Shown in pieces: positions 7,069-24,446 of a stretch of DNA of 25,282 nt. Source of the DNA: Bacteroidota bacterium. Lineage in GTDB: Bacteria > Bacteroidota > Ignavibacteria > UBA10030. Both the position numbers and the translations under genes were made by a program. The notes under the pieces were generated by a model that ran no database searches, had not been told where the DNA came from, and saw nothing but the letters and a program-made list of their open reading frames with translations. The stretch is taken from contig DASWKY010000083.1 in NCBI GenBank assembly GCA_036396395.1, positions 1 to 25,282 on the forward strand, written 5' to 3'. How positions within the stretch are numbered: position 1 is the stretch's first letter; each line of letters begins with the position of its first letter.

Positions 7069-7214
7069 TTTGTTTTAAGGTGGTGCTTCTTGGAATTCCG
7101 TATAATATAGAGATGCTCGATGCAGAATGCAACCGCAGAATGAAATTCTAACACGGAAATTGATTGTCTCCCGCTCTCCTTGTATATTGTTCCAGCACAG
7201 AGACACACGACTTC

Positions 7215-8753
7215 ATGATGAAAAATTTTTCGCTTCGGGTTCAGGTCTTTATCACCGTCGGGGTATTACTTCTCGGTTTGGTGAGCGCGACCGTTTACAT
7301 AGCTGATACTGTGCGAGATGCGCGCGAAAGCATCGTGCGCCTCAACCGCGAACGGTTAAGCTCGCTCACCTCAAACCTTGCCCGCCGCTATGGCAGTGTC
7401 TTGAATTTTGTCGCCCCCGAACAGTCCGGGCAGACATCGCTTGCGGAACGCCCGGAGCTTCTCGAACAGTTCGCCGCCATCACACGAGAAGAACTGACGA
7501 AAGCGCCCGATACGGAAGCGGGTTTTTTTCATTTTCTCTGGAACCGGGAACTGGTGCATTCAAATACAACTCCCCCGACAAGCTCTCTTGTTAACGTGAG
7601 GACGTTCCGGCAGTTCCTTCCCCCCATCCTGCAGACAACCAGCAATGAAGAACTGGAACAATGGACGCATTACGAATCGTCTGCGGCGAGTTTTATTATT
7701 GTTACCCAGCCGGTCTATGCGCGTAATCAACTGGTTGGGGCGGCGTGGGCATTCGATGACCTCGGTGATGAATTGTCTTCGGCGTGGCCGCAGGACGTAA
7801 CGCTCTTTCTGCAATTTGTCGTTGTGCTGGGGATACTGCTTGCGATTTCATTTGTCGTCACATTAAGCCAGGAAGTGAAATCCATCCGAGACGGCCTCTC
7901 GCGGATGAAGGAAAATCTCACCGCGCGCTTGCCGGTTTCACGCTCGGAGATGGGAAGTATCGCGGGGTCCATCAATGAGTTGGCGAATACAATTGTACAG
8001 CAACAACAAGAGAAGGAGGAACTCCAGCGTACCATCCAACAGCAAGAGAAACTCGCATCGCTGGGACAATTAATTGCCGGTGTTGCGCATGAAGTCCGCA
8101 CACCGCTCACAGGTATTAAGACCCGCATTCAACTCTGGCAGAAAGCCCTCCGAAGCTCAAAGAGAAAGAGTACAAACACGCCCGAAGGTCCTACGCCGAA
8201 GTCCATGCGTCTGGTTGTGGAACAACTCGACCGTATGGAAACCATCGTTCAGAAGCTGTTGTATTTTTCCAAGCGGAGGTCGCCTCATTTCCAGAGCGTG
8301 AACATGCACGAATTGCTGGACGATTTTATAGAAGAGATCCGGGTAGAGGCGAAAAAACAACGCGTGAGCATCGAACGCGTGTACGGGTCGAACACACCCA
8401 TGGTTTCCATCGATGTTTCGGAGATACGCGAAGTTTTCCAAAACCTGTTTCGAAATTCTTTGGATGAAATGATGAAGGGCGGGATTTTGCGCATCAACAC
8501 GTTTGTTGAGAATGGGCAGAACGTGCTTCATGTCTCCGTTGAAGATTCAGGATCCGGCGTCGACCCTCAACTCGTTCCCAACATCTTCGACCCGTTTTAT
8601 ACGACAAAAGATTCCGGCGTCGGGCTGGGCCTCTCCATTGCATATGAGATCATCCGCTCGCACCAAGGCAACCTGTGGTACGAACAGAGCATGCTCGGAG
8701 GTGCGCGGTTCACCGTTACGCTACCGTTAAACGTCGCGCGGAAGGATACATAA
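7215..8753 (+). CDS. Membrane sensor histidine kinase, NtrB-like (about 512 aa; ATG 7215 preferred over 7164)
   Basis: Two TM helices around an extracytoplasmic domain, HAMP-like linker, H-box AHEVRTPL, N-box NLFRNS, G1 DSGSG, F-box FDPFYTTK, G2 GVGLGL. Confidence 0.92.
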   Translation: MMKNFSLRVQVFITVGVLLLGLVSATVYIADTVRDARESIVRLNRERLSSLTSNLARRYGSVLNFVAPEQSGQTSLAERPELLEQFAAITREELTKAPDTEAGFFHFLWNRELVHSNTTPPTSSLVNVRTFRQFLPPILQTTSNEELEQWTHYESSAASFIIVTQPVYARNQLVGAAWAFDDLGDELSSAWPQDVTLFLQFVVVLGILLAISFVVTLSQEVKSIRDGLSRMKENLTARLPVSRSEMGSIAGSINELANTIVQQQQEKEELQRTIQQQEKLASLGQLIAGVAHEVRTPLTGIKTRIQLWQKALRSSKRKSTNTPEGPTPKSMRLVVEQLDRMETIVQKLLYFSKRRSPHFQSVNMHELLDDFIEEIRVEAKKQRVSIERVYGSNTPMVSIDVSEIREVFQNLFRNSLDEMMKGGILRINTFVENGQNVLHVSVEDSGSGVDPQLVPNIFDPFYTTKDSGVGLGLSIAYEIIRSHQGNLWYEQSMLGGARFTVTLPLNVARKDT

Positions 8754-8760
8754 TTACGGT

Positions 8761-10137
8761 ATGAAAACTCAATACAGTGTTCTGGTAGTCGATGACGAAG
8801 CGATCAGCCGCCTGAATATCAAGGATGCCCTGGCGACCGAGGACATTGATGTGAACGAGGCGGCAGACGGGCTTGCCGCTCTCGCCCAACTGAAACGGAA
8901 AACGTACGACGCCGCCCTGCTGGATATCCGGATGCCGAAAATGGACGGATTGACGGCGTTAACACAATTCAAAAAGATAGCTCCCGATATGCCTGTTATC
9001 GTCTTTACCGCTTACGGGACGAGTGAAAAGGCGATTGAAGCCATGAAGATCGGGGCATTCGACTACCTGACGAAACCGTTCGACCTTGAAGAATTATTGG
9101 CGGTCATCCGCCGTGCGCTCGAACACCGCCAGCTCTCGACGCGTGTCGAGGCGCTCCAGCAGTTCATCGTAGACCGTGAATCCGGCGAATTCCAGCCCGA
9201 CCAACTGGTCAGTAAAAGCCCCTCTATGCAAAAGATTTTCAAGATGATCGGGCAGGTTGCGTCTTCGGACGCAACTGTCCTCATTGAGGGCGAAACGGGA
9301 ACGGGCAAGGAGTTGGTGGCAAACGCGCTCTGGTATCATTCTGAGCGGCGCAACGCGCCGTTCATCAAAATCAATTGTGCGGCGATACCCGAAAGCCTGC
9401 TCGAAAGTGAATTGTTCGGCCACGAGCGCGGGGCGTTCACCGGTGCAGAGTCGCGGCGGCTGGGGCGTTTCGAACTCGCGCACAAAGGGACGTTGTTCCT
9501 GGACGAAGTGTCGGAAATGAGCACGCAACTGCAATCCAAATTGTTGCGCGTACTCGAACAGAGCGAGTTCCAGCGCGTGGGTGGCAGTGAAACGATTCAC
9601 GTGGATGTGCGCATCCTCGCGGCGACGAACCGTACCCTGCAGGATGAAGTGCGTTCAGGGCGTTTCCGCAAAGATCTCTACTTCCGGTTACAGGTTGTGC
9701 ATCTACTACTCCCTCCTTTGCGAGAACGCACGGAAGACATTCCCGTGCTGGTAAAACATTTTCTCAAAAAATATGGCGGGAAACGCAATCTCGCCTCCGA
9801 TACGAAACTCATCAAACAACTGCTCGAATATCCCTGGCCCGGGAACGTGCGCGAACTGGAAAACGTCATCCAGCGCGCCACGGTCCTGGTGCAGGGAAAA
9901 GTGATTTCGCTTGACCATTTATCTCTCCCTTCAACAGGCACTGAAGAGACCGGTAGCGCCATTTCAAACGACCGAACCTCTCTCAATCTCCGCAAAACTC
10001 TTCAAACCGTAGAACGCGACCTCGTTCTCAAAGCTCTGCAAAAAGCAAAATGGAACCGCTCGAAGGCGGCGAAGTTGTTAGGTATCAACCGTCGTCTTTT
10101 GTACGGGAAAATAAAAGAGTACGACCTGCATCAGTAA
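8761..10137 (+). CDS. Sigma-54-dependent response regulator (NtrC-family enhancer-binding protein, 458 aa)
   Basis: Receiver domain (VVDDE, LLDIRMP), Walker A GETGTGKE, GAFTGA, Walker B LFLDEV, and a Fis-type HTH (WNRSKAAKLLGINRRLLY). Confidence 0.96.
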   Translation: MKTQYSVLVVDDEAISRLNIKDALATEDIDVNEAADGLAALAQLKRKTYDAALLDIRMPKMDGLTALTQFKKIAPDMPVIVFTAYGTSEKAIEAMKIGAFDYLTKPFDLEELLAVIRRALEHRQLSTRVEALQQFIVDRESGEFQPDQLVSKSPSMQKIFKMIGQVASSDATVLIEGETGTGKELVANALWYHSERRNAPFIKINCAAIPESLLESELFGHERGAFTGAESRRLGRFELAHKGTLFLDEVSEMSTQLQSKLLRVLEQSEFQRVGGSETIHVDVRILAATNRTLQDEVRSGRFRKDLYFRLQVVHLLLPPLRERTEDIPVLVKHFLKKYGGKRNLASDTKLIKQLLEYPWPGNVRELENVIQRATVLVQGKVISLDHLSLPSTGTEETGSAISNDRTSLNLRKTLQTVERDLVLKALQKAKWNRSKAAKLLGINRRLLYGKIKEYDLHQ

Positions 10138-10226: not shown

Positions 10227-10242
10227 GGGCACGCCAGTTGCA
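10227..10242 (+). promoter_or_regulatory. Sigma-54 (-24/-12) promoter of cassette A
   Basis: GGGCACG-CCAG-TTGCA matches the consensus TGGCACG-N4-TTGCW with exact spacing, 43 nt before ATG 10286. Confidence 0.8.
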
Positions 10243-10285: not shown

Positions 10286-10786
10286 ATGAATACCGGCCAA
10301 ACGATGTTGACCGTCGGCGCGATGGTTTTACTCGGATACACAGTTCTGATGACAAATCGTTCTTCGTTGACGCACGGAGTAATCCTCCAGCAGACGGAAA
10401 TCGGCGTGTACATGATTTCGCTCGCAATTTCACGAATTGAAGAAGCTTCCGGCAGAGCGTTCGATGCGGCATCGGCGGGCGATATTGTGACATCAACAGC
10501 CGCGTTGACGGCGGGTGGCTCCTTTGGTCCCGCAACGGGAGAAACATATCCGGATTTTAACGACTTCGACGACTATGACAATTTTGCCAAAATTGACACC
10601 ATACCGGGAGTAGATATACTGCGGGTGCATTCCCTTGTCAGGTATATAGAGCCCGCCAACCCGGACAGCGTGTTGAACTCTAGCACAAAGACATTCCATA
10701 AAAGAATGGACGTGACGGTAACCGGCACATCCACCAGCGATACACTACGGATGTCCTATATTTTCAGTTATTGGGCATTTCGTTAA
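10286..10786 (+). CDS. Cassette A gene 1: PilV/MshD-like pilin-fold protein without canonical leader (166 aa)
   Basis: N-terminal hydrophobic helix (GQTMLTVGAMVLLGYTVLM), IEEASGRAFD and FNDFDDY motifs as in MshD-like proteins. RBS TAAGGA. Confidence 0.65.
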   Translation: MNTGQTMLTVGAMVLLGYTVLMTNRSSLTHGVILQQTEIGVYMISLAISRIEEASGRAFDAASAGDIVTSTAALTAGGSFGPATGETYPDFNDFDDYDNFAKIDTIPGVDILRVHSLVRYIEPANPDSVLNSSTKTFHKRMDVTVTGTSTSDTLRMSYIFSYWAFR

Positions 10787-10798
10787 TCAGGGGATATT

Positions 10799-11425
10799 AT
10801 GGGCTCTAGTACGATACTCGACATTATTACTTCTGTTATCATTGCAGGATTTCTCCTGCTCACCGCGTTGCGGCTGAACGACCAGGCGAACGAGACGTCC
10901 ATTCTGTATCATTCCAACCTGTTATTACAGCAAAATATGACCGCGCTGACGGGCATTTTGGAACATGATTTCCGCCGCATCGGGTTTTGCGCAGACTATA
11001 AAAAAATTAAGGATCCCGCTGACGCAATCCGTTACGCCGATACCAGTAAAATCCGTTTTTGGCTGGATCTCGACAACGATGGGGTCATGGATTCCATCGA
11101 ATACTCTATAGGCCCGCCGAGCGAGATGACCTCTACAGTAAATCCCCGCGACCGTGTCCTGTACCGTAAAGTAAATAACACGACAGCCCAGCGGTTGGAG
11201 ATGGGTGTGACTCAATTTCGTTTCAAATTTTTTAACGCGCTTGGCGATACACTGCTCTTCCCCATCGCTGAGCCGCGTGAAATCCATTCGATGGAAATAT
11301 CCCTCCAAATAGAAAGTTTTGCACCGTTCGATGTGCGCTACACCGCATCGAATGACACGCTGGCGGACTTCCAGATGTACTGGCGCCAGATCCGCCTCGC
11401 GGCGCGCAATCTTCGCAACCGATAA
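10799..11425 (+). CDS. Cassette A gene 2: PilW/MshO-like pilin-fold protein without canonical leader (208 aa)
   Basis: ILDIITSVIIAGFLLL helix, LEHDFRRIGF (PilW-type D.R.aG[YF]), DLDNDG loop, C-terminal RN motif. Confidence 0.65.
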   Translation: MGSSTILDIITSVIIAGFLLLTALRLNDQANETSILYHSNLLLQQNMTALTGILEHDFRRIGFCADYKKIKDPADAIRYADTSKIRFWLDLDNDGVMDSIEYSIGPPSEMTSTVNPRDRVLYRKVNNTTAQRLEMGVTQFRFKFFNALGDTLLFPIAEPREIHSMEISLQIESFAPFDVRYTASNDTLADFQMYWRQIRLAARNLRNR

Positions 11426-11439
11426 GAAAGGCCTCTCCT

Positions 11440-12642
11440 ATGGGACGCGCATCCATGATTATGGTGATGAGTTATAGCACGGTGCTGATGATGATGGGGT
11501 TTAACATCTCCAAAGTCTCCAACTCAGCATATGAAAACTACATTGATTATTACGAGCGTACCGTTGCTCATAATATCGTCAACAGCGGAGCGAATTTAGC
11601 CGCTCAGCAAATCTACGTACAGCCGAACTGGCGCACCGGGTACTCGAACAAACCGATGTTCGGCGGCACAATCAATGCGGCGGTCACGACCCAATCGGAC
11701 AGCACATTAAAATTATTCGTTACCGCTGAGTACAAAACCTACCGGGATACTGTCATTGTGGTATTACAGCCGAGTAGTTTTTCTAAATTTTCGTACTATA
11801 GCAATATTGAAGGCAATATCTGGTGGACGTCCAAAGATACCGTGTGGGGACCGATGCATACGCAGGACTACCTCGGCGTGGCAAACTCGCCTGTGTTTTA
11901 CGGAAAGGTTACGTCAAAGAAGGGGTTAGAAATACATAGCGGCGGCGCCAACCCGAAATTCTACGGCGATTTCCAATCCGGCGTATCGCTTGAGCTTCCG
12001 TCCGACTTGAATCCCCTGAAAAGTGCCTCTGCCTCCGGCGGGAGATACATCTATGATAATGATGTCTCCATCGAATTCATGGATGACAGCGCGAAAGTGA
12101 AAATCGGTACCTCGGCTGATACGATGGTGTATCTCCCGACGTGGGCGCCTAACGGCGCCATCCTTGTGGAAAAGGGCAACCTGAGGCTGAAGGGAACAGT
12201 AAATAAATCCTTAACGGTCGGAGCGTTGGAAGGCGGAAGTTCCTCAAAAGGAAAAGTGTATTTTGATGACGATCTAAAGTATAAATACGACCCGCTTCTG
12301 TACCCAGATTCCACGGTGGTTGTGGGTGTTGTTGCTGAAGATTCTCTTGTCATTACTCAGAATAGCGCAAACCAAGAAGACATCATTATACAAGCCGCTC
12401 TCTTTTCCCTCACCAAGGGGCTTGGCTCAGAAAATTACAACATAGGAGACCCGCGCGGAAAAATCGAATTGCTTGGCGGTATTACTCAGTACCAGCGCGC
12501 CGCAGTCGGTACGTTTAGCGGTGAGAGTATCACTCATGGTTACTCTAAACGCTACCGGTACGATGAACGCCTGATGGTGATACGGCCTCCGTTTTTCCCA
12601 ACAACTGGAAGCTACGAAGTGCTCTCGTGGTACGAAAGATAG
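11440..12642 (+). CDS. Cassette A gene 3: PilX/MshP-like protein with a large C-terminal domain (400 aa)
   Basis: MGRASMIMVM helix with no acidic +5 residue, PilX-like AHNIVNSG..LA, beta-rich C-terminal domain, terminal LSWYE. Confidence 0.62.
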   Translation: MGRASMIMVMSYSTVLMMMGFNISKVSNSAYENYIDYYERTVAHNIVNSGANLAAQQIYVQPNWRTGYSNKPMFGGTINAAVTTQSDSTLKLFVTAEYKTYRDTVIVVLQPSSFSKFSYYSNIEGNIWWTSKDTVWGPMHTQDYLGVANSPVFYGKVTSKKGLEIHSGGANPKFYGDFQSGVSLELPSDLNPLKSASASGGRYIYDNDVSIEFMDDSAKVKIGTSADTMVYLPTWAPNGAILVEKGNLRLKGTVNKSLTVGALEGGSSSKGKVYFDDDLKYKYDPLLYPDSTVVVGVVAEDSLVITQNSANQEDIIIQAALFSLTKGLGSENYNIGDPRGKIELLGGITQYQRAAVGTFSGESITHGYSKRYRYDERLMVIRPPFFPTTGSYEVLSWYER

Positions 12643-12673
12643 TGTAGCAATTCTATATCAACACCATTTATTG

Positions 12674-12710
12674 TGCCTCAAATTGATACATTTATTATCG
12701 ATTTGAGGCA
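12674..12710. promoter_or_regulatory. Pair of 17-bp inverted sites, candidate enhancer for cassette B (could also form an RNA hairpin ending cassette A)
   Basis: TGCCTCAAATTGATACA (12674-12690) and, on the minus strand, TGCCTCAAATCGATAAT (12694-12710). Centres are 20 bp apart. Confidence 0.5.
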
Positions 12711-12812
12711 TAGCTGTGTAAGATGCGTTTACGCGCTTGTTATATATCACCTGTTTACTTAGTGTTTTGATATATTATTTAATTTCTTTGTAGCTTTGTA
12801 TGTATTGCTCTA

Positions 12813-12827
12813 AGGCATGGTTTTTGT
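12813..12827 (+). promoter_or_regulatory. Sigma-54-like promoter of cassette B
   Basis: AGGCATG-GTTT-TTGT has correct GG-N10-G spacing but T instead of C at -12. It lies about 100 bp downstream of the paired sites across an AT-rich spacer. Confidence 0.45.
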
Positions 12828-12916
12828 GCCTATTCTAGTAATGGGTGTCTCAGGACGAAGCAATTCCCCATTTCAGCTATTTTCGCCTGAATGAATTATT
12901 GTAATTATTCCATACT

Positions 12917-13534
12917 ATGTCCGGAACAAACTCATTTCTTGTGCTTGGGGCATTGGTGCTCCTGTCGTTGCTTTCGCTTTCTGCAAACCGGGCGATGATT
13001 TCAAGTTACGCCAATTTGCTGGAAACGCAGGCAATGATTGCGACTATTGCCGAAGCGGAGAATCTCATTCAAGAAATCAGTTCGAAATCGTTTGACCAAG
13101 TTATCGCTGTCGAACAGTCGAGCGCGGGGAAATCTTCTGGCGGTGGTTCTTCATCCGGCGGTGGACTGTCTCAGGGTAAGGGACAGTCACAAGGCGGAGG
13201 GCCGTCAGAGGGCGAAGGACCTCCGTTTATTCCGCCGGGGTGGTTAAAACGAAAAAAGCCGGCAGACTTCACGCCACCCGGCTTGCTTGGCAAAGAGCAG
13301 GGTGAAAAATATCCTTTCTTTAACGACGTGGACGATTATCACGGCTTGCAAAAAAAACACGACCATCCGGTTTTTGGGTCAATCGAATTGAGCGTGACCG
13401 TACAGTATGTGGACCCGAACAATACAGCGACGATTTCCTCGGACAAACAATCCCTGGTAAAAAAAGTAGAAGTGAAGGCGTTTAATAAAGGGCTTGAGGA
13501 CACATTGAAATTATACCACGTAATCTACCAGTAA
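12917..13534 (+). CDS. Cassette B gene 1: PilV/MshD-like protein with a Gly/Ser-rich insertion (205 aa)
   Basis: FLVLGALVLLSLLSLSANR helix, IQEISSKSFD, FNDVDDYHG. Paralogous to 10286-10786. Confidence 0.65.
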   Translation: MSGTNSFLVLGALVLLSLLSLSANRAMISSYANLLETQAMIATIAEAENLIQEISSKSFDQVIAVEQSSAGKSSGGGSSSGGGLSQGKGQSQGGGPSEGEGPPFIPPGWLKRKKPADFTPPGLLGKEQGEKYPFFNDVDDYHGLQKKHDHPVFGSIELSVTVQYVDPNNTATISSDKQSLVKKVEVKAFNKGLEDTLKLYHVIYQ

Positions 13535-13540
13535 TCTATT

Positions 13541-14122
13541 ATGGGATCGACAACCGACCTTATAGGATCCTTTGTTATCGGCGGGCTTGTTATCGTTATT
13601 ATTCTGTCATTGAATTACAACCTCAGCAATACGACATTTCAGCGTTCGCAGGACTTGATTTCACAACAAGCATCGGTCGAACTCTTGAACATATTGGAAA
13701 ACGACCTGTATAAAGCGGGGTACCGTACGACCGCCACCCCTGTTCTGCTCGCAGAATCTTTGTCGGTTGCTTTCCTTGCCGACCTTGACGATAACGGCAC
13801 GATAGACTCCGTGCGATACACCGTAGGCGATACGACATTTTTTCTGACAACAACGAACCCGCACGACAGGCCTCTCTATCGGAGGCTGAACGCCGGAAGT
13901 CAACAAAACGTCGCTTCCGGCTTGACAGAATTTTATTTCGCGTACCGGGACACCGCCGGAAGTGTGATACCGTACGATTCTCTCAAATACGTGCGCCATA
14001 GGTCGGTCGTCCGCCTTATCACATTTGCGTTCGTGATCGAACCGAGCGACCCGCTGGATTCGACATTTATTCCGGTAACAGCAGAAAAAGTGATTCATCC
14101 AAAAAATATCGGGGGTTGGTAA
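13541..14122 (+). CDS. Cassette B gene 2: PilW/MshO-like protein (193 aa)
   Basis: DLIGSFVIGGLVIVII helix, LENDLYKAGY, DLDDNG, NPHDRPLYR, PKN. Paralogous to 10799-11425. Confidence 0.65.
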   Translation: MGSTTDLIGSFVIGGLVIVIILSLNYNLSNTTFQRSQDLISQQASVELLNILENDLYKAGYRTTATPVLLAESLSVAFLADLDDNGTIDSVRYTVGDTTFFLTTTNPHDRPLYRRLNAGSQQNVASGLTEFYFAYRDTAGSVIPYDSLKYVRHRSVVRLITFAFVIEPSDPLDSTFIPVTAEKVIHPKNIGGW

Positions 14123-15256
14123 GTGGGACGCGCTTCGCTCATTATGATCCTCGGTGCATCAATTACCGTCGGCGTGATGAACTTACAGCTCAACCGCGCG
14201 TCCGAACAGGCGACGGAAAATCTCGTCCGCTATTTTGACGGGACACTTTCCCGAAACCTTGCCAACGACGCGGCGTCGTATGTATTGGGGTTGTATGCCG
14301 ACAGTGCGACTCTGCGCGTACAAAACTCAGCGAAACTTTCTTCGTCGATTTTCAGCGATGTCGGAGACCATAGCCTTACGTATTCACTGTATGATACGAC
14401 GATCAACATCGAGAAGAACGACCACGAGGTCGTGAAGCTTGTGATGCGTGCTGAATATGGAAAGAGCGTTCACGAGGTGATGGTGTATGCCGGCACAACT
14501 TTTGGGTTCGTTCCGGAGCCTCTTCGCGGCGCGGTTACCGCCAACGGGGTGCTGGATAATACGATTGGCGACCTGCACATCGACGGCAGGAACCATACGG
14601 AAGAAGGCGAGCTTGAGAACTTTGGCGGGGTGTACGGCATATCCTCCGGAAGCGCCTTTACTAACAAGGGAAAAGCAGTTATCGGCGGAACCGATGAAGA
14701 TGGGAACGACTACCCTGCGAGCAATCCGGCGAATACCCTTTCAGTGGAACAGAGCCACAATTGGAGCAATACATTTCCTGCTGACCCCGACGGAGTTTTT
14801 AATTTCCCCGGAGGCACGTTGAAAGAAGTCGCCAAGAGCGGCGTCGCGGGAAGCCAATACGTGGCGAACCCGAAAGACCTCCAATTCCCGCTCAAGGGTG
14901 TAACATACGTGGACCTTCCCGAAGGCGTATCGTGGAAGGCGGCATGGCTGGGGAAGGACCCTGCCGGCATTCTCGTCGTCCATAATTCATCCGGCACGGC
15001 GCGTGTGGAGAATATCGCTTCGGAGACTCCCTTTAAGGGGTTGATTATCGCAGATAAAATGTTCCATATTCATGCTGACGTGCTGGGCGCCGTTATGCTC
15101 TTATCGAATAGTTTAGAAAAGAAAAAAATCTGCACCGGCAACCACGAGAACAAGATATTATTCAGCCGCGAGGCAATTCAACACGCCACCTACCTGACAT
15201 CGGAAAAGGGAACGGGGTGGCGGGGCAGGGTACCGATCTTCGGGTGGATGGAATAA
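14123..15256 (+). CDS. Cassette B gene 3: PilX/MshP-like protein (377 aa, GTG start)
   Basis: GRASLIMILG helix, SRNLANDA, IDGRNH, terminal FGWME. Starts immediately after the previous TAA. Confidence 0.62.
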   Translation: MGRASLIMILGASITVGVMNLQLNRASEQATENLVRYFDGTLSRNLANDAASYVLGLYADSATLRVQNSAKLSSSIFSDVGDHSLTYSLYDTTINIEKNDHEVVKLVMRAEYGKSVHEVMVYAGTTFGFVPEPLRGAVTANGVLDNTIGDLHIDGRNHTEEGELENFGGVYGISSGSAFTNKGKAVIGGTDEDGNDYPASNPANTLSVEQSHNWSNTFPADPDGVFNFPGGTLKEVAKSGVAGSQYVANPKDLQFPLKGVTYVDLPEGVSWKAAWLGKDPAGILVVHNSSGTARVENIASETPFKGLIIADKMFHIHADVLGAVMLLSNSLEKKKICTGNHENKILFSREAIQHATYLTSEKGTGWRGRVPIFGWME

Positions 15257-15257
15257 G

Positions 15258-15668
15258 ATGAAACTCTTACTTTCCATATTAATTGCAACACTCCTTCAAC
15301 AAGGGAACCCCCAGTCGAATTCCCAGGCAGGCTCGGACAGTACACCGTTGAAAACCGTCGAGCTTTTCAAGAAAGGCATTGATGAAAATGATATGCTGGT
15401 GATTTGTAAAGTCATGTCCGACGAAGAAGGCACGGGTCCACTGAAGCAGGCGAGCTACGAACAGATGCAGAGTTCCCTCGAAGGGTTAAGCACGATGTGG
15501 CGTGCGAAACCGTTTACCTACGGCGAAACGACATACACCGGGGGCAACACGGCGACATCCGCGACGGTAAAGGTGGAAGTGAAGAGCCTGAAGCAGGAAG
15601 TAAACTTTGTTCTGGAGAAGTACGGCAATTCGTGGTATATCTTCGATATTGAAATTTTCTTCAGGTAA
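15258..15668 (+). CDS. Small exported protein, possibly NTF2-like/DUF4878-like fold (136 aa)
   Basis: Short signal-peptide-like start MKLLLSILIATLL, C-terminal ATVKVEV...FVLEKYGNSWYI pattern, 1 nt after the cassette B gene 3 stop. Confidence 0.6.
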   Translation: MKLLLSILIATLLQQGNPQSNSQAGSDSTPLKTVELFKKGIDENDMLVICKVMSDEEGTGPLKQASYEQMQSSLEGLSTMWRAKPFTYGETTYTGGNTATSATVKVEVKSLKQEVNFVLEKYGNSWYIFDIEIFFR

Positions 15669-15682
15669 CACATGAAGTCCTT

Positions 15683-15745
15683 GTGCATCCCGGTCATCGG
15701 TAACGGGATTCCTCGCCCCAATAACACGGCGAGACCCGGGATGAC
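15683..15745. repeat. REP-like element of the GTCAT...ATGAC type (degenerate)
   Basis: GTGCATCCCGG...CGGGATTCC-TCGCC...GGCGAG-ACCCGGGATGAC, with nested hairpins. Confidence 0.55.
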
Positions 15746-15752
15746 TCTCCCC

Positions 15753-15793
15753 AAAAACACAACGGGCATGTACTCATGTACATGCCTGTTGTG
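15753..15793 (-). terminator. Intrinsic terminator for cassette C
   Basis: 16-bp stem CACAACGGGCATGTAC / GTACATGCCTGTTGTG with a TCAT loop, followed on the minus strand by TTTTT (plus-strand AAAAA 15753-15757). Confidence 0.75.
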
Positions 15794-15813
15794 TGTACGC
15801 TAAATGCTATCCG

Positions 15814-16863
15814 TCATTCATACCAATAGACGATTTGGTAGTACCTCAGCTTGCCGATGTTTTTCGCGTTGGTGAGCGCGGCACTGCTGTAGAGCACCTT
15901 TCCGTTCGCGCCGGTACCTTTCAGCGTGAGGCTCGCGGCGCCATCGCCGGGTTGAGCCACAATAAGACCGCCGACAATTTTTGGCGTTCCCGCGCCGCCA
16001 AAGTTTACCGTATTCGACTCTCCAAACACAACGACGAGGCCGTACCATTCGAAGTTTCCGCCAATTTCGATATTGCCGCGTACTGCAAGGATGCCATATC
16101 CGACGGTGCCGCCGGTGAATTTCACCTTGTAGTTCGTATCGGCGGGCGAATCGCACACGACGATAACAGGGTTCGTAGATGAGCCGTATGTTTGTCCGCT
16201 GTAAGTCCCCGTAGTGAGATAATAATCGGCGTTGCTTAAATACTCTTGAATGTAGTCCGCTGGATTAGCAAGAGAATCGTCCACGATGACTTCTGTCGAG
16301 CCTTGAATATTATCTCCGGGGGTGTCGTCTTCCGCATCCATAATGGTGGCTGAATCTGTGGAGTTTAACACCCCGACACCGGGAAGATCGCCTGAGCCGA
16401 CAAGGGCTGTCCCGTCAGCATTCCAGTTATGACCGTCGACAGTCGGCTGGCCACTCATAGTGAATGTTACTGGCGATGCCCGAATGCCGATAGCGGAGCT
16501 GACGCCAGGGAAGGGTTTGGTATAGCGGAAAAGCTTGAGGTACATTGTATAGCTCGTATCGGTATATCTGCCTTGGGCTGTCAGCCAGACCGTATCGCGA
16601 GGGCTTTCGCTGTATTGCGCACTGGTGATTTGGTATTCGCCGTTGGCAAAGTCTATTGTTTCCGTTGTGTCTGGGTCCACGTTACGGTCGTACCCGCGCA
16701 AGGTCGCGTGGACCGCCGTGCGTGCGAGGTTGCGGGCGTACATGTATTTGTAGTACGTATAATTGTTCTCGAGCGCGCGCTCTGTCGTGCCCGAGATATT
16801 GGAAGCGATTGTCGCCATCGCCATCCCCAACCCCATAACCATAAATAATGCGGCTCGTCCCAT
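15814..16863 (-). CDS. Cassette C gene 3: PilX/MshP-like protein (349 aa)
   Basis: MGRAALFMVMGLG helix, ARNLARTAV, VDGHNW, beta-repeat GYGILAVRGNIEIGGNFEWYGLVVVFG, terminal VYWYE. RBS GAGGA. Confidence 0.62.
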   Translation of the reverse strand: MGRAALFMVMGLGMAMATIASNISGTTERALENNYTYYKYMYARNLARTAVHATLRGYDRNVDPDTTETIDFANGEYQITSAQYSESPRDTVWLTAQGRYTDTSYTMYLKLFRYTKPFPGVSSAIGIRASPVTFTMSGQPTVDGHNWNADGTALVGSGDLPGVGVLNSTDSATIMDAEDDTPGDNIQGSTEVIVDDSLANPADYIQEYLSNADYYLTTGTYSGQTYGSSTNPVIVVCDSPADTNYKVKFTGGTVGYGILAVRGNIEIGGNFEWYGLVVVFGESNTVNFGGAGTPKIVGGLIVAQPGDGAASLTLKGTGANGKVLYSSAALTNAKNIGKLRYYQIVYWYE

Positions 16864-16875
16864 AGTGCGTCCTCG

Positions 16876-17463
16876 TTATTGGAGATTGCCCATATTCCGC
16901 GGATAGATCAGTTTTTCCCAGAAGACGGAGATATAGGTCGTAATGTCCGGCAGAATAATCGGCGCGTGGCTCTGTACGCGAAAATACACTTGAATGGCGT
17001 GTATCGAATCGCGCGACGCTCCCGTTACCGGAGCGGTTAATGTATTAAACGTGCTGTCAAGATATGTCATGCTGAACTCCGTGACGCCGATGTTGTGTTC
17101 CACCGTCACGCCGTTTTCCGTGCGGTAGAGAGTGTGGTCGTCTGGATTCTCAGAGGCAGGATCTTCGGGTCCCAACTCGTAGGTCACCGTACGCATCGTC
17201 GCATCGTTCAAAATGTAGTACTTGAAGCGGATCTTGTTCGCCTCCGCCGTATCCACTTTGGTGCCGCTCACGTTAAAACCCATTTTATGAAAATCGAACT
17301 CGACTGTTTTGGCAAGCTCGAGCGCGTAGTTTTGGGTCATGTAGTTATACGTGTTGTAGTACATCGTCGAGTTCATATTGATCTGCACGCGCCCGATGGT
17401 AAACATTAGCGAGCCGAAGATGATCGTCGAAGCCATGATATCCATCATTGCACTGGAACCCAT
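16876..17463 (-). CDS. Cassette C gene 2: PilW/MshO-like protein (195 aa)
   Basis: MMDIMASTIIFGSLMF helix, VEFDFHKMGF, NPDDHTLYR, GVTEF, YPRN. RBS AGAGGAG. Confidence 0.65.
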   Translation of the reverse strand: MGSSAMMDIMASTIIFGSLMFTIGRVQINMNSTMYYNTYNYMTQNYALELAKTVEFDFHKMGFNVSGTKVDTAEANKIRFKYYILNDATMRTVTYELGPEDPASENPDDHTLYRTENGVTVEHNIGVTEFSMTYLDSTFNTLTAPVTGASRDSIHAIQVYFRVQSHAPIILPDITTYISVFWEKLIYPRNMGNLQ

Positions 17464-17478
17464 ATTCTTCTCCTCTGG

Positions 17479-18054
17479 TTAGAAGTAACGCCGGTAAATA
17501 GAGATATCCTGCAGGCTGATCCAGATGGTTGAGTCGTTCAAATCAACTGGTAAGTTCGGGTGATAGCAGTCCACATTAACCACCTTGTAGTGTGTTCTGT
17601 CTGTGATTAACGAGTCCGGATAGGTTTCACGCGCATACGTGACCGTGCTTTTGATGTAAAACCAGCCGAGAATGCTGTCTTTGACGGCACGGTGATAGTT
17701 ATGGTAGTCGTCCACGTCGTCAAATCTTGTTTTCGAAAGATAACTCGTGTCAACGTTGCTGTAGCCGAGAATTGTTCCCAGACCGAGAAGATTCAGCGAC
17801 TCACCTGATCCGTCGGGCCCGAAATTCGCCGAAGTCGTAAATTGACTATCGGCATAGACCAAGGTCCCGATTGAATTCTCGTCAAAGTCCCGCGCGAGAA
17901 TTTCATCGAGCAGGGTTTGGGCGATCGAGAGAGCATTAAGCTGTGACTGCGCTTCCAGCCCCGTCGCGATAGACGAAATAAACGTGCCGTTGATGCTCAG
18001 CGTCAGCATGGCGAGCATCGTCAAAGCCCCTACTACCAACATCGTTTGTCCCAC
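17479..18054 (-). CDS. Cassette C gene 1: PilV/MshD-like protein (191 aa, GTG start)
   Basis: GQTMLVVGALTMLAML helix, LLDEILARDFDE, FDDVDDYH. RBS AAGGAG. Confidence 0.65.
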   Translation of the reverse strand: MGQTMLVVGALTMLAMLTLSINGTFISSIATGLEAQSQLNALSIAQTLLDEILARDFDENSIGTLVYADSQFTTSANFGPDGSGESLNLLGLGTILGYSNVDTSYLSKTRFDDVDDYHNYHRAVKDSILGWFYIKSTVTYARETYPDSLITDRTHYKVVNVDCYHPNLPVDLNDSTIWISLQDISIYRRYF

Positions 18055-18100: not shown

Positions 18101-18129
18101 ACAATACTGAAAACACCGGCAAGAGTCAA
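18101..18129 (-). promoter_or_regulatory. Candidate sigma-70 promoter of cassette C
   Basis: Minus strand TTGACT-N17-TATTGT, 46 nt upstream of the GTG start. Confidence 0.55.
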
Positions 18130-18386
18130 GTTACGCCGGTCACACTCTGCCGTTCCTTGCTGAATATCACAGTATTGCTCCTATCAACAATATTTCTCAG
18201 GCATTTTCTTGATAAGAAACGGCTCTCATTGTACTGAATTTCAAGAAAACAAACCTTCGACTTCACACCGCGCTTCAGCATAAGACTCTAATAGCTATGA
18301 AATGAACGCCGAACGCGACGGCGTGGTCAATGTGCGCGTACACACAATCTCTTGCCACTCAGGCAATTCCGCTCTATATTAATCGA

Positions 18387-22487: not shown

Positions 22488-23138
22488 CTACAACGACTTA
22501 ATCACCCGCACAACTTTCCAGACAAACGACACATCTTTTTTCCGCACCACCATCGGCTCAAACTCCGGGTTCAGCGGCACGAGCTGAATGAACTCCGTTT
22601 CGATCTTCACGCGCTTCACCGTATCCTCGTCGTTCACGCGCACCACACAAATATCGCCACTGCGGGATTCTTGCTTCGGGCTGACCACAATCACGTCGCC
22701 GTCCTCGATGCGGGGCGCCATGCTGTTGCCCTTCACCACGAGCGCGAACGCGTTCGCGTCGCTCACGTTGTCCACGGTGATGTACTTTTCGACGTAGTCC
22801 GCGTGAAAGTACAAATTCGGCGCGCCGCCGGGGACGGACGACAATAACGGAACCGTCACTAACTCGACGCGCTTATAGCGGCTCATCGGCAAGTGCACAA
22901 TTTTCTTCTCCGTGGTCGTTCGCGCGAACATGTCGCCCTCGCCCGTTAAGAGCCAGTGGGCAGTCACGCCGGCCATCCGTGCAATGCGCATCAGGTAGTT
23001 GCTGTCCGGCGCCTGTTCGCCGTTCTCCCATCGCTGGATGGTGCGGGTAGCGACATCGATTTTCGCGGCGAGCTTCGCCTGGTCAAACCCTTTCGAAAGC
23101 CGCGCTTCGCGAATCCGCCGAGCAAGTTTAGTGTTCAT
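22488..23138 (-). CDS. XRE-type HTH plus S24 peptidase repressor (LexA/CI-like, 216 aa)
   Basis: N-terminal HTH (QAKLAAKIDVATRTIQRWENG, WLLTGEG), catalytic Ser in KGNSM and Lys in TVKR. RBS AGGAG. Confidence 0.9.
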   Translation of the reverse strand: MNTKLARRIREARLSKGFDQAKLAAKIDVATRTIQRWENGEQAPDSNYLMRIARMAGVTAHWLLTGEGDMFARTTTEKKIVHLPMSRYKRVELVTVPLLSSVPGGAPNLYFHADYVEKYITVDNVSDANAFALVVKGNSMAPRIEDGDVIVVSPKQESRSGDICVVRVNDEDTVKRVKIETEFIQLVPLNPEFEPMVVRKKDVSFVWKVVRVIKSL

Positions 23139-23169
23139 ACTGTCATGTCTCCTGAAAAATACAATCCAG

Positions 23170-23263
23170 ATGTCATTCTGAGCGTAGCGAAGAATCCCGC
23201 TTTCATATCGGCAGCTCTTATAACGAGTTTCTTCCGTAGGGATGCCTACGGCAGGAATGACAT
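23170..23263. repeat. REP-like element of the GTCAT...ATGAC type
   Basis: ATGTCATTCTGAGCGTAGCGAAGAATC ... TTCTTCC-GTAGGGATGCCTAC-GGCAGGAATGACAT, with terminal inverted ends. Confidence 0.65.
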
Positions 23264-23300
23264 AGTTTTTTTTCCTAAATATATATTTGTCGCATCGCGC

Positions 23301-23329
23301 TTGACACTATGACAAATTTGTCGTATCCT
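23301..23329 (+). promoter_or_regulatory. Sigma-70 promoter of the radical SAM gene with a palindromic operator in its spacer
   Basis: TTGACA (23301-23306)-N17-TATCCT (23324-23329). Perfect palindrome GACAAATTTGTC at 23311-23322. Confidence 0.7.
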
Positions 23330-23338
23330 CGCGCGGTC

Positions 23339-23367
23339 AACATACATAAAATTTTCATTTCTGTCAA
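23339..23367 (-). promoter_or_regulatory. Candidate sigma-70 promoter of the repressor gene, face-to-face with the one above
   Basis: Minus strand TTGACA-N17-TATGTT. Confidence 0.5.
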
Positions 23368-23378
23368 GAGGCATTACC

Positions 23379-24446
23379 ATGTTTTCGCTCACGATTAAAG
23401 GCCGGGGAGCGGGATTCAACCCGCCCAACCGGTTTGAGGAAATCTCCGTCGGTCCTCCCCCTGAAGACATTGCCCAGTATTTCGAGGAGCCGGACCTGGA
23501 GCGCAAAATCCCCACCAAATATTATATGGATAATACCAAAACGATATTGTCCAATAATGACAGCCCTGATATCGGCTTCCGGTACAGCATCAACCCCTAC
23601 CGGGGGTGCGAGCACGGATGTATTTACTGTTACGCCCGGCCGTCGCATGAGTATTTGGGGTTCTCGTCGGGTATGGATTTCGAGACGAAAATCCTCGTGA
23701 AAATGGACGCGCCGAAGCTCTTGGCGGAAGAACTTCGCAAGCCTTCGTGGGAACCGCAAGTCGTCGCGTTCTCCGGCAACACGGATTGCTACCAGCCGGT
23801 AGAACGAAAGTTAGAAATTACGCGCAAGTGTGTGGAGGTGTTTTTGAAATTCCGCAACCCGTTCGGGATGATCACCAAGAATGCTCTCGTCCAGCGCGAC
23901 ATTGACCTGCTGAAAGAACTCTCGTCTATGAATCTCGTGTGCGTTACGGTCAGCATTACGTCGCTGGATAACGAACTGATCAGAAAAATGGAGCCGCGCA
24001 CATCTGCGCCGCATAAGCGGCTGGAGACTATCGAGGTGCTGGCGAAAAACGGTATTCCCGTCGGCGTGAATGCCGCGCCGATCATCCCCGGCTTAACCGA
24101 CGTGGAGATCCCCGCCATCCTTAAAGCCGCCTCGGAGCGCGGAGCGAAATGGGCGGGACATACCATCGTGCGGCTCTCGTACGCGCTAAAGGATTTGTTC
24201 GTGGACTGGGCGAACCGCAACGTGCCGGAGAAAGCGCCGAAGATCATCAACCGCATCAAAGAGGTGCGCGGTGGGAAACTATCTAATTCCGACTTCGGCA
24301 CGCGAATGTCCGGCGAAGGGGAAATCGCCGAATCCATCCACCAGTTGTTCGAATCGAGCTGTCGTCGTTATCATCTCAATGAAGAACGGATGCATTTGAG
24401 CAAAGCGCACTTCACAAGGAACGCAGACCAGGTGGAGATGTTTTGA
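23379..24446 (+). CDS. PA0069/Rv2578c-family radical SAM protein (spore photoproduct lyase-like, 355 aa)
   Basis: KGRGA..NPPNRFE start, SINPYRGCEHGCIYCYARP (CxxxCxxC), NTDCYQPVER. Confidence 0.9.
   Translation: MFSLTIKGRGAGFNPPNRFEEISVGPPPEDIAQYFEEPDLERKIPTKYYMDNTKTILSNNDSPDIGFRYSINPYRGCEHGCIYCYARPSHEYLGFSSGMDFETKILVKMDAPKLLAEELRKPSWEPQVVAFSGNTDCYQPVERKLEITRKCVEVFLKFRNPFGMITKNALVQRDIDLLKELSSMNLVCVTVSITSLDNELIRKMEPRTSAPHKRLETIEVLAKNGIPVGVNAAPIIPGLTDVEIPAILKAASERGAKWAGHTIVRLSYALKDLFVDWANRNVPEKAPKIINRIKEVRGGKLSNSDFGTRMSGEGEIAESIHQLFESSCRRYHLNEERMHLSKAHFTRNADQVEMF

Follow-up and report, generated by a model that had tools for sequence, protein, structure and literature searches.

The window, a 25,282-nucleotide stretch of DNA from a Bacteroidota bacterium of the class Ignavibacteria, encodes nine pilin-like proteins and, upstream of them, a two-component regulatory pair. 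By position, a sensor histidine kinase (7164–8753, + strand; Pfam HAMP, HisKA and HATPase_c; start codon uncertain) is PilS-like and an NtrC-type sigma-54-dependent response regulator (8761–10137, +; Pfam Response_reg, Sigma54_activat and HTH_8) is PilR-like. A sigma-54 −24/−12-like site, GGGCACG-N4-TTGCA (10227–10242, +), with one mismatch to the consensus, lies 44 nt upstream of the first pilin start. Sigma-54-like sites are no more numerous in the window than expected by chance, and position alone singles out this one, the only well-placed site among them.

The nine genes are best explained as three paralogous A-B-C minor-pilin cassettes that would act at the tip of a pilus or in its priming. 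The first comprises A1, a small minor pilin of 166 aa beginning MNTGQTML (10286–10786, +); B1, a minor pilin of GspJ/PilW fold (10799–11425, +; 208 aa; MGSSTILD); and C1, a modular pilin in which a 60-residue α1 is combined with a pilin sheet and a β-helix (11440–12642, +; 400 aa; MGRASM). The second consists of A2, which carries a Gly/Ser-rich insert (12917–13534, +; 205 aa; MSGTNSF), B2 (13541–14122, +; 193 aa; MGSTTD) and C2, whose GTG start lies immediately 3′ of a TAA (14123–15256, +; 377 aa; MGRASL); C2 is abutted by a 136-aa protein without a family that bears a Sec-type signal (15258–15668, +). On the opposite strand, the third cassette holds C3 (15814–16863, −; 349 aa; MGRAAL), B3 (16876–17463, −; 195 aa; MGSSAMMD) and A3, with a GTG start (17479–18054, −; 191 aa; MGQTML). 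The presence of three spare cassettes suggests exchangeable, separately regulated pilus tips.

Structural comparison assigns a pilin class to each subunit type. A is best explained as a small pilin of the GspI/PilV class, the ESM Atlas structural neighbours of A1 including a cluster (TM 0.82) in which 67% are N_methyl pilins. AlphaFold2 predicts B1 to comprise a helix at residues 3–59 and a sheet (pLDDT 84.8), and the best 26 matches of this model in a Foldseek search of the PDB are all XcpW, EpsJ, GspJ or TTHA1219 (probability 0.95–1.0, TM about 0.4–0.5), so that a GspJ/XcpW/PilW-class pilin is the best explanation of the modelled fold. The C1 model (pLDDT 88.7) likewise shows a helix, at residues 2–60, and a sheet; its best PDB match by Foldseek is ComZ (6qvi, E 1e-8) and its AlphaFold Database matches are PilX_N and DUF4900 proteins, with the aligned region of the PilX_N-domain matches beginning 6–21 residues later than in C1. 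The likeness of C to PilX_N and ComZ is one of predicted structure: PF14341 (PilX_N) gave no match to the C type at E ≤ 1, and DUF4900 alone was matched, below its cut-off. From the model, C is best explained as a ComZ/PilX-class pilin carrying a β-helix, which is probably a binding module. Models of B1 and C1 (AlphaFold2) and of A1 (Atlas) share a long α1 that runs from the hydrophobic N-terminus and packs on the β-sheet. With membrane helices removed, a predicted A1–B1–C1 complex scored 0.83 and a control in which B was replaced scored 0.73, a margin that counts neither for nor against binding among the three.

An earlier note, made from the DNA sequence alone, had claimed that all nine proteins start close to a Gly, with no basic leader before it, no Phe after it and no Glu at +5, and with an Asp at variable distance from the Gly in the W-like (B) copies. 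When every start was re-derived, these claims held throughout. All nine N-termini follow the pattern M(x0–2)G, leaving no room for a class III leader ahead of the Gly. K/R before the Gly, Phe after it and Glu at +5 are absent from 9/9 proteins, and the Arg at residue 3 of C1–C3 is C-terminal to the Gly. Asp occupies residues 8, 6 and 8 of B1, B2 and B3; Glu at mature position 5 is missing from all nine, and A and C have no acidic equivalent. A hydrophobic segment spans approximately residues 4–24 of each protein. The note's further claim that prepilin-motif detectors miss these subunits was also correct, as neither PF07963 (N_methyl) nor TIGR02532 matched any of the nine window proteins at E ≤ 1, and a canonical pilin of a relative scored 32 bits against TIGR02532.

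The short N-termini are not a product of start calling, as the note had argued from upstream stop codons. Eight of the nine reading frames have an in-frame TAA upstream (at 4, 4, 4, 2, 0, 4, 5 and 3 codons). For C1 (11440), the closest upstream in-frame stop is a TGA at 11353, 28 codons away, with no ATG, GTG or TTG between the two; C1 orthologues of relatives have stops 1–8 codons upstream. GTG starts in two of the nine genes (C2 at 14123; A3 at 18054, − strand) could point to miscalled starts, or the copies might be degenerate or pseudogenised versions of normal prepilin genes. However, the stops lie 0–5 codons upstream, hundreds of gene calls made independently give identical starts, the frames are unbroken and the models of B1 and C1 are confident, which together effectively refute this reading.

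We compared the N-termini of distinct homologues of the three minor types (34 A, 41 B and 35 C) and of a putative major pilin (110) that begins MGQQQLLL. The leaderless N-terminus recurs in all four classes, and because of this recurrence the pattern is not due to chance. A K/R-G|F-x-x-x-E leader occurs in none of hundreds of homologues, so the nine window copies are not degenerate members of a family with normal leaders. Among 150 non-redundant B representatives, all 150 are leaderless and none has the canonical motif or an early K/R. The major pilin starts with MG in 109/110 homologues, and MGQQQ is invariant; its N-terminal 25 residues are 92% conserved, compared with 47% elsewhere. C-type proteins carry K/R after MG in 33/35 cases, A-type proteins have Gly at residue 2–4 in 30/34 and no K/R within residues 1–6, and 40 of the 41 B-type proteins have an Asp among the first ten residues. 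A Gly near the N-terminus is missing from about 60% of B-type representatives. Cleavage of these helices as ordinary Sec signal peptides is also contradicted, because the N-terminal helix is conserved and, unlike a Sec signal, continuous with an α1 of about 58 residues.

In canonical pilins the position of the B-type Asp corresponds to Glu5: Asp8 of B1 aligns with Glu5 in three alignments, which are individually weak (E 8e-4 and 0.16; hhalign probability under 5%). When profiles of the four classes were compared with those of canonical prepilins from the same bacterial class, every probability was under 5%, and the B alignment was the only one to agree with two others; the registers obtained for the major, A and C types against Gly(−1)/Phe1 were rejected as a basis for interpretation. 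The conserved Asp of B-type subunits may thus substitute for Glu5. If Met is removed, the Asp of B2 becomes residue 5, and Met removal would place it at exactly position 5 in many B homologues. In the major, A and C subunits the N-terminal amine lacks an acidic partner, and their packing in a filament must therefore differ from that of known pili.

Synteny links the cassettes to a type IV pilus-like machine. In relatives, the A-B-C triad lies between two ATPases and adjoins T2SSF, MGQQQ pilins, a PilM-like protein and a secretin, and in their L031 and L030 clusters an assembly ATPase, platform protein, pilins and secretin are encoded together. The genome that contains the window encodes PilC and PilB on contig C170, PilM-like and N-like proteins and a secretin on C13 and an MGQQQ gene on C173. 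The best explanation is that the nine pilins are part of a type IV pilus-like machine that occurs throughout Ignavibacteria and would consist of a PilB-like ATPase, a second, shorter T2SSE ATPase, a PilC-like platform, PilM/N-like proteins and a secretin. The Melioribacter paper reported pilB, pilC, pilT and pilQ, and neither pilA nor pilD. The window cassettes are located apart from the machine genes and A and C lack Glu5, as might be expected if the pilin-shaped proteins stayed unpolymerised in inner-membrane-anchored periplasmic complexes, such as a short pseudopilus or scaffold. We consider this very unlikely: orthologous triads lie inside the ATPase/platform/secretin operon of relatives, Glu5 is normally missing from GspK/PilX-type tip subunits anyway, and the concentration of major-pilin conservation in the N-terminal 25 residues fits a filament core.

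The prepilin peptidase is largely undetected in this lineage. No PF01478 (A24 peptidase) match was found in the window's own genome, which is 58.6% complete, in 28/30 order-level relatives (present in 2/30) or in 144/151 sampled class genomes (present in 7/151); the same search gave a match in 12 of 14 control genomes, Thermus among them. The major pilin, by comparison, occurs in 78/151 class genomes, and the ATPase, platform, secretin and leaderless pilins are retained where the peptidase is undetected. Of eight genomes with the peptidase, six encode a canonical G|FS-x-x-E prepilin no more than 1.5 kb from the peptidase gene. A lenient A24/A24_N search of five closed genomes gave no peptidase signal. 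Weak PF01478/PF06750 matches in closed genomes, considered as cryptic peptidases, proved to be K+ channel and radical SAM proteins. Conserved membrane proteins near the major pilin genes were just GT-C glycosyltransferases and a T9SS-tailed C39-like protein, implausible as cytoplasmic-face leader peptidases.

Collectively, these results suggest, with a probability of roughly 70%, that the minor pilins of an Ignavibacteria pilus-like machine are made with no class III leader and do not depend on a prepilin peptidase. The earlier note had left open peptidase independence, an altered peptidase or membrane-anchored complexes; the first is favoured, since the A24 peptidase is mostly undetected where the machine and the leaderless pilins are kept. 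Every subunit would be translated leaderless, from a start 0–3 residues ahead of the membrane helix. There being no class III leader, a prepilin peptidase would not be needed to free the N-terminus, and the only maturation expected would be deformylation and removal of any Met that is followed by a small residue, as it is in eight of the nine window proteins. On balance, we think that Ignavibacteria and Kryptonia-like relatives build type IV pili from born-mature subunits, with the start codon at the usual cut site, that would forgo PilD cleavage and N-methylation and pack their core without the Phe1/Glu5 pair.

The missing acidic residue of the major, A and C subunits, the incompleteness of the window's own genome and the weakness of the alignments that fix the register count against this reading, and so does the A type. 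The A-type Gly-Gln stands at a variable distance (1–3 residues) from the Met; GQ falls within the first 7 residues of 115/120 A-type homologues while the preceding residues vary (M, MNT, MS, MST, MHS), and most A-type proteins begin MN, a start that Met aminopeptidase is expected to leave intact. The Gly-Gln resembles either the remnant of a cleavage site or one still in use. An unrecognised peptidase outside Pfam A24 might cut after the conserved Gly, at G|Q in A and the major pilin and near G-R/K in C, and the new N-terminal Gln could cyclise to an uncharged pyroglutamate; retention of Gly-Gln in the A type and of MGQQQ in the major pilin would fit. Nevertheless, the frequent lack of an N-terminal Gly in B, the lack of any one cleavage motif that suits all four classes, gene clusters whose only conserved polytopic candidates are GT-C glycosyltransferases and the absence of A24/A24_N signal in closed genomes make such an enzyme unlikely.

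In reviews, the prepilin peptidase counts among the core components common to all type IV filament machines; Berry and Pelicic recorded it alongside pilins, ATPase and platform protein in 1656 species (PMC4471445). Our literature search for pilins described as leaderless or peptidase-independent found none. If peptidase independence is true, a large and widespread lineage that keeps motor, platform and secretin without leader peptides or peptidase would be the first in which type IV filaments are shown not to depend on the enzyme, and leader cleavage would not be mechanistically required for assembly. It would also expose a blind spot in the pilin detectors N_methyl, TIGR02532, PilFind and the MacSyFinder models, and offer a natural test of the roles of Phe1, N-methylation and Glu5 in filament assembly.

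Four known systems come closest. ComZ is a pilin with an inserted β-solenoid, and Thermus TTHA1219 and ComZ are classed as type IV pilins, which bear class III leaders. B1 resembles TTHA1219 and C1 resembles ComZ among the competence-pilus minor pilins of Thermus thermophilus (PDB 5g23/5g24 and 6qvi), which are similarly encoded by a small run of consecutive genes; the Thermus genome has PF01478, whereas leaders are missing from the window proteins, which share about 10–13% sequence identity with those of Thermus. To our knowledge, all Gsp pseudopilins rely on prepilin peptidase. The type II secretion tip GspI–GspJ–GspK (XcpV-W-X, EpsI-J; PDB 3ci0, 5vtm, 6utu, 5bw0) is also encoded by three genes that run from small through medium to large, provides the best structural matches of B1 (GspJ/XcpW/EpsJ) and, like the window, has a largest subunit without an acidic residue at position 5; GspK has an α-domain where window C has a β-helix. 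With the type IVa pilus (PilA, PilBCD, PilT, PilMNOPQ; FimU-PilVWXE), the Ignavibacteria machine shares a T2SSE ATPase, a second ATPase, a T2SSF platform, PilM/N-like proteins, a secretin and a two-component sigma-54 regulator beside pilin genes, but it lacks PilD, the N_methyl motif and, in the putative major pilin, Phe1 or Glu5. The Bacteroidetes-type type II secretion system, described as Cytophaga hutchinsonii CHU_3195–3201 (PMC5553014), belongs to the same wider lineage, and a few Ignavibacteria have a canonical system that resembles it; this type brings its own Peptidase_A24 together with G|F-x-x-x-E pseudopilins of canonical form and is separate from the leaderless system.

Nine pilin-like open reading frames occupy positions 10286-18054 of the window; the first six run on the plus strand and the last three on the minus. 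They form three paralogous A-B-C triads (A type, 166-205 aa; B type, 193-208 aa; C type, 349-400 aa), with about 20-31% identity between paralogues. Re-deriving the starts and upstream codons reproduced exactly the N-termini listed in the earlier note. An in-frame TAA lies 0-5 codons 5′ of the start in eight of the nine, and C1, the C-type gene of the first cassette (start 11440), has no ATG, GTG or TTG between its start and the upstream TGA at 11353. No N-terminal extension is therefore possible, and a start-calling artefact is excluded, as the note had claimed; in relatives, C1 orthologues are preceded by a stop at a distance of 1-8 codons. All nine proteins indeed lack a basic residue before the Gly, a Phe after it and a Glu at +5. 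Each carries a hydrophobic run of 19-21 residues from about position 4, and the first charged residue after this run is residue 25 in seven of them. The canonical leader models PF07963 (N_methyl) and TIGR02532 matched none of the nine at E ≤ 1, whereas a canonical pilin from a relative scored well on both kinds of model, bearing out the expectation that prepilin-motif models miss these proteins.

Leaderless N-termini are conserved among homologues of the major, A, B and C classes. The putative major pilin (MGQQQ gene) starts with MG in 109 of 110 distinct sequences, with K/R within the first six residues in none of the 110, and its first 25 columns are 92% conserved versus 47% elsewhere. C-type proteins begin with MG in 33 of 35 cases, followed by K/R; the A type has Gly at residues 2-4 (30 of 34), mostly as GQ, and the B type has Asp inside the first ten residues (40 of 41). 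When the B alignment was used as a profile in an exhaustive search, it recovered 1913 cluster representatives. The N-termini of the best 150 were read: a G-F-T-L-x-E-like motif and an early K/R were both absent throughout, 84 had Asp at residue 6 and 50 had it at residue 8. The best 120 A-type homologues have no Pfam domain and are named 'hypothetical'. Leaders do occur in distant structural relatives, namely N_methyl clusters neighbouring A1, and in matches whose aligned region begins 6-21 residues later than in C1. Together with the conserved leaderless homologues, these comparisons indicate that the leaderless state is derived and lineage-wide. Decay of the window copies from normal prepilins was rejected, since their homologues are leaderless too.

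The A24 prepilin peptidase (PF01478) was not detected in the organism's own genome (58.6% complete), and occurs in 2 of 30 order-level relatives, mostly over 95% complete, and in 7 of 151 class-level genomes; the search matched in 12 of 14 reference genomes used as controls. With the MGQQQ pilin present in 78 of the 151, 71 pilin-bearing genomes have no detected A24 peptidase. Relaxing the search in five genomes that are closed or nearly so returned noise only; the weak matches proved on inspection to be a K+ channel and radical SAM proteins. Of eight peptidase-bearing genomes, six have a canonical prepilin (G|FS-x-x-EL) no more than 1.5 kb from the peptidase. These sets are Bacteroidetes-type T2SS, which carries its own A24 gene (PMC5553014). 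N_methyl motifs are rare in the class (15 of 151 genomes), and thus the peptidase travels with canonical prepilins, not with the leaderless system, whose host lineage is largely without it. Nine class genomes have N_methyl-motif proteins and no detectable A24 peptidase (including G064:C4:2038-2112, G067:C33 and G016:C82), which may reflect assembly gaps, as several matches sit at contig ends. The scarcity of the enzyme in the class and the leaderless N-termini of the homologues support the earlier note's interpretation that the subunits could be peptidase-independent.

Beyond the observed sequence features, folds, synteny and enzyme absence, we infer how leaderless pilins would be processed, assembled and used. 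Translation would begin at the usual peptidase cut point, so that the subunit would enter the membrane already leaderless. Met aminopeptidase takes off the initiator Met if the second residue is Gly, Ala, Ser, Thr, Cys, Pro or Val, and this would be expected for eight of the nine window proteins, the exception being A1 (MN start). A less likely alternative, an unrecognised peptidase that cuts after the conserved Gly, would account for the G-Q that A-type proteins retain behind a variable stub of one to three residues, but the B type often lacks the Gly and no linked candidate gene was found. Under initiation at the cut point, the B-type Asp would take the register of Glu5, with which it aligns in three independent alignments, each weak (NCBIfam PRK10557, calibrated with a canonical pilin; Thermus TTHA1219; and hhalign against canonical prepilins of the class). 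Residue 2 is small in 63 of the 84 B representatives with Asp at residue 6, so that Met removal would leave exactly x1-x2-x3-x4-Asp5. B2 fits this scheme; B1 and B3 have two extra residues.

A less likely, rival view of assembly holds that the pilin-like proteins form membrane-anchored complexes and do not polymerise. No pilus machine genes lie within the window; the own genome carries PilC-like and PilB-like genes (contig C170), PilM-like, N-like and secretin genes (C13) and a gene starting MGQQQLLLVILG (C173). Relatives encode the entire machine in a single operon, ordered as one to three MGQQQ genes, T2SSF platform, T2SSE ATPase, A-B-C triad, a second, shorter T2SSE ATPase, PilM-like, PilN/O-like and secretin. 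In one same-genus genome, this operon coexists with a syntenic copy of all three window cassettes (L030, L032), and the lineage with the system spans Ignavibacteria, Melioribacteraceae and Kryptoniota. The system is type IV pilus-like, and its pilins, the nine spare minor ones of the window among them, carry no class III signal peptide.

The own PilC/PilB pair (G000:C170:1281-4436) is orthologous to a second pair in the same-genus genome (L035:2837-6150), which follows a response-regulator-like gene, and not to the core pilus operon pair; two ATPase/platform pairs are thus present in the genus. A GT-C-type membrane glycosyltransferase (PMT_2 plus TPR, about 8 TM) adjoins MGQQQ genes (L030:1651-3450(-), L030:3475-4308(-), L031:16745-19186(+)), next to a GT2 enzyme in L030. 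About 24 of 79 major-pilin loci encode related polytopic proteins, and such enzymes may glycosylate the pilin. A 798-aa protein with a Sec signal, Peptidase_C39-like and Golvesin_C domains and a T9SS C-terminal sorting domain (L041:13614-16010(+)) is a repeated neighbour of the major-pilin genes (18 of 79 loci).

Within the window, a histidine kinase and an NtrC-type sigma-54 regulator lie 5′ of the cassettes, and a -24/-12-like site lies 44 nt upstream of the A1 start (10286). Cassette 3 may be driven differently from sigma-54-type cassette 1, because a sigma-70-like TTGACT-N17-TATTGT (18107-18135, minus strand) precedes the A3 start by about 50 nt. A 136-aa ORF (15258-15668, plus strand), which has a Sec-type signal but belongs to no family, is probably co-transcribed with cassette 2, as it begins 2 nt past the C2 stop. 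A2 (12917-13534, plus strand) differs from A1 and A3 in having a Gly/Ser-rich low-complexity insert at about residues 68-100. At 22488-24446, an XRE-S24 repressor diverges from a radical SAM gene (Pfam).

We found no earlier description of such pilins in literature whose coverage was thin for subscription journals. Berry and Pelicic (PMC4471445) report the peptidase alongside pilins, ATPase and platform protein across 1656 species, and Denise et al. count it among components of the presumed ancestral system, making it optional in their models solely because different systems can share it. The confident B1 AlphaFold2 model (pLDDT 84.8) places alpha1, residues 3-59, on a sheet, and its best 26 PDB matches comprise only GspJ-family pseudopilins (XcpW, EpsJ, GspJ) and TTHA1219, a type IV-like pilin of Thermus. 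In the C1 model (pLDDT 88.7), a helix of 60 residues is combined with a pilin sheet and a long beta-helix. Among solved structures its best match is ComZ, a competence pilin of Thermus (E 1e-8); in AlphaFold DB its top clusters consist of PilX N-terminal-domain and DUF4900 proteins. The A1 Atlas model is similar (TM 0.82) to a cluster whose members are 168 aa long and carry N_methyl in two thirds of cases. From these matches, the triads look like small tip/priming pilin sets, with a predicted resemblance to GspI-J-K of type II secretion and to TTHA1219 and ComZ of Thermus.
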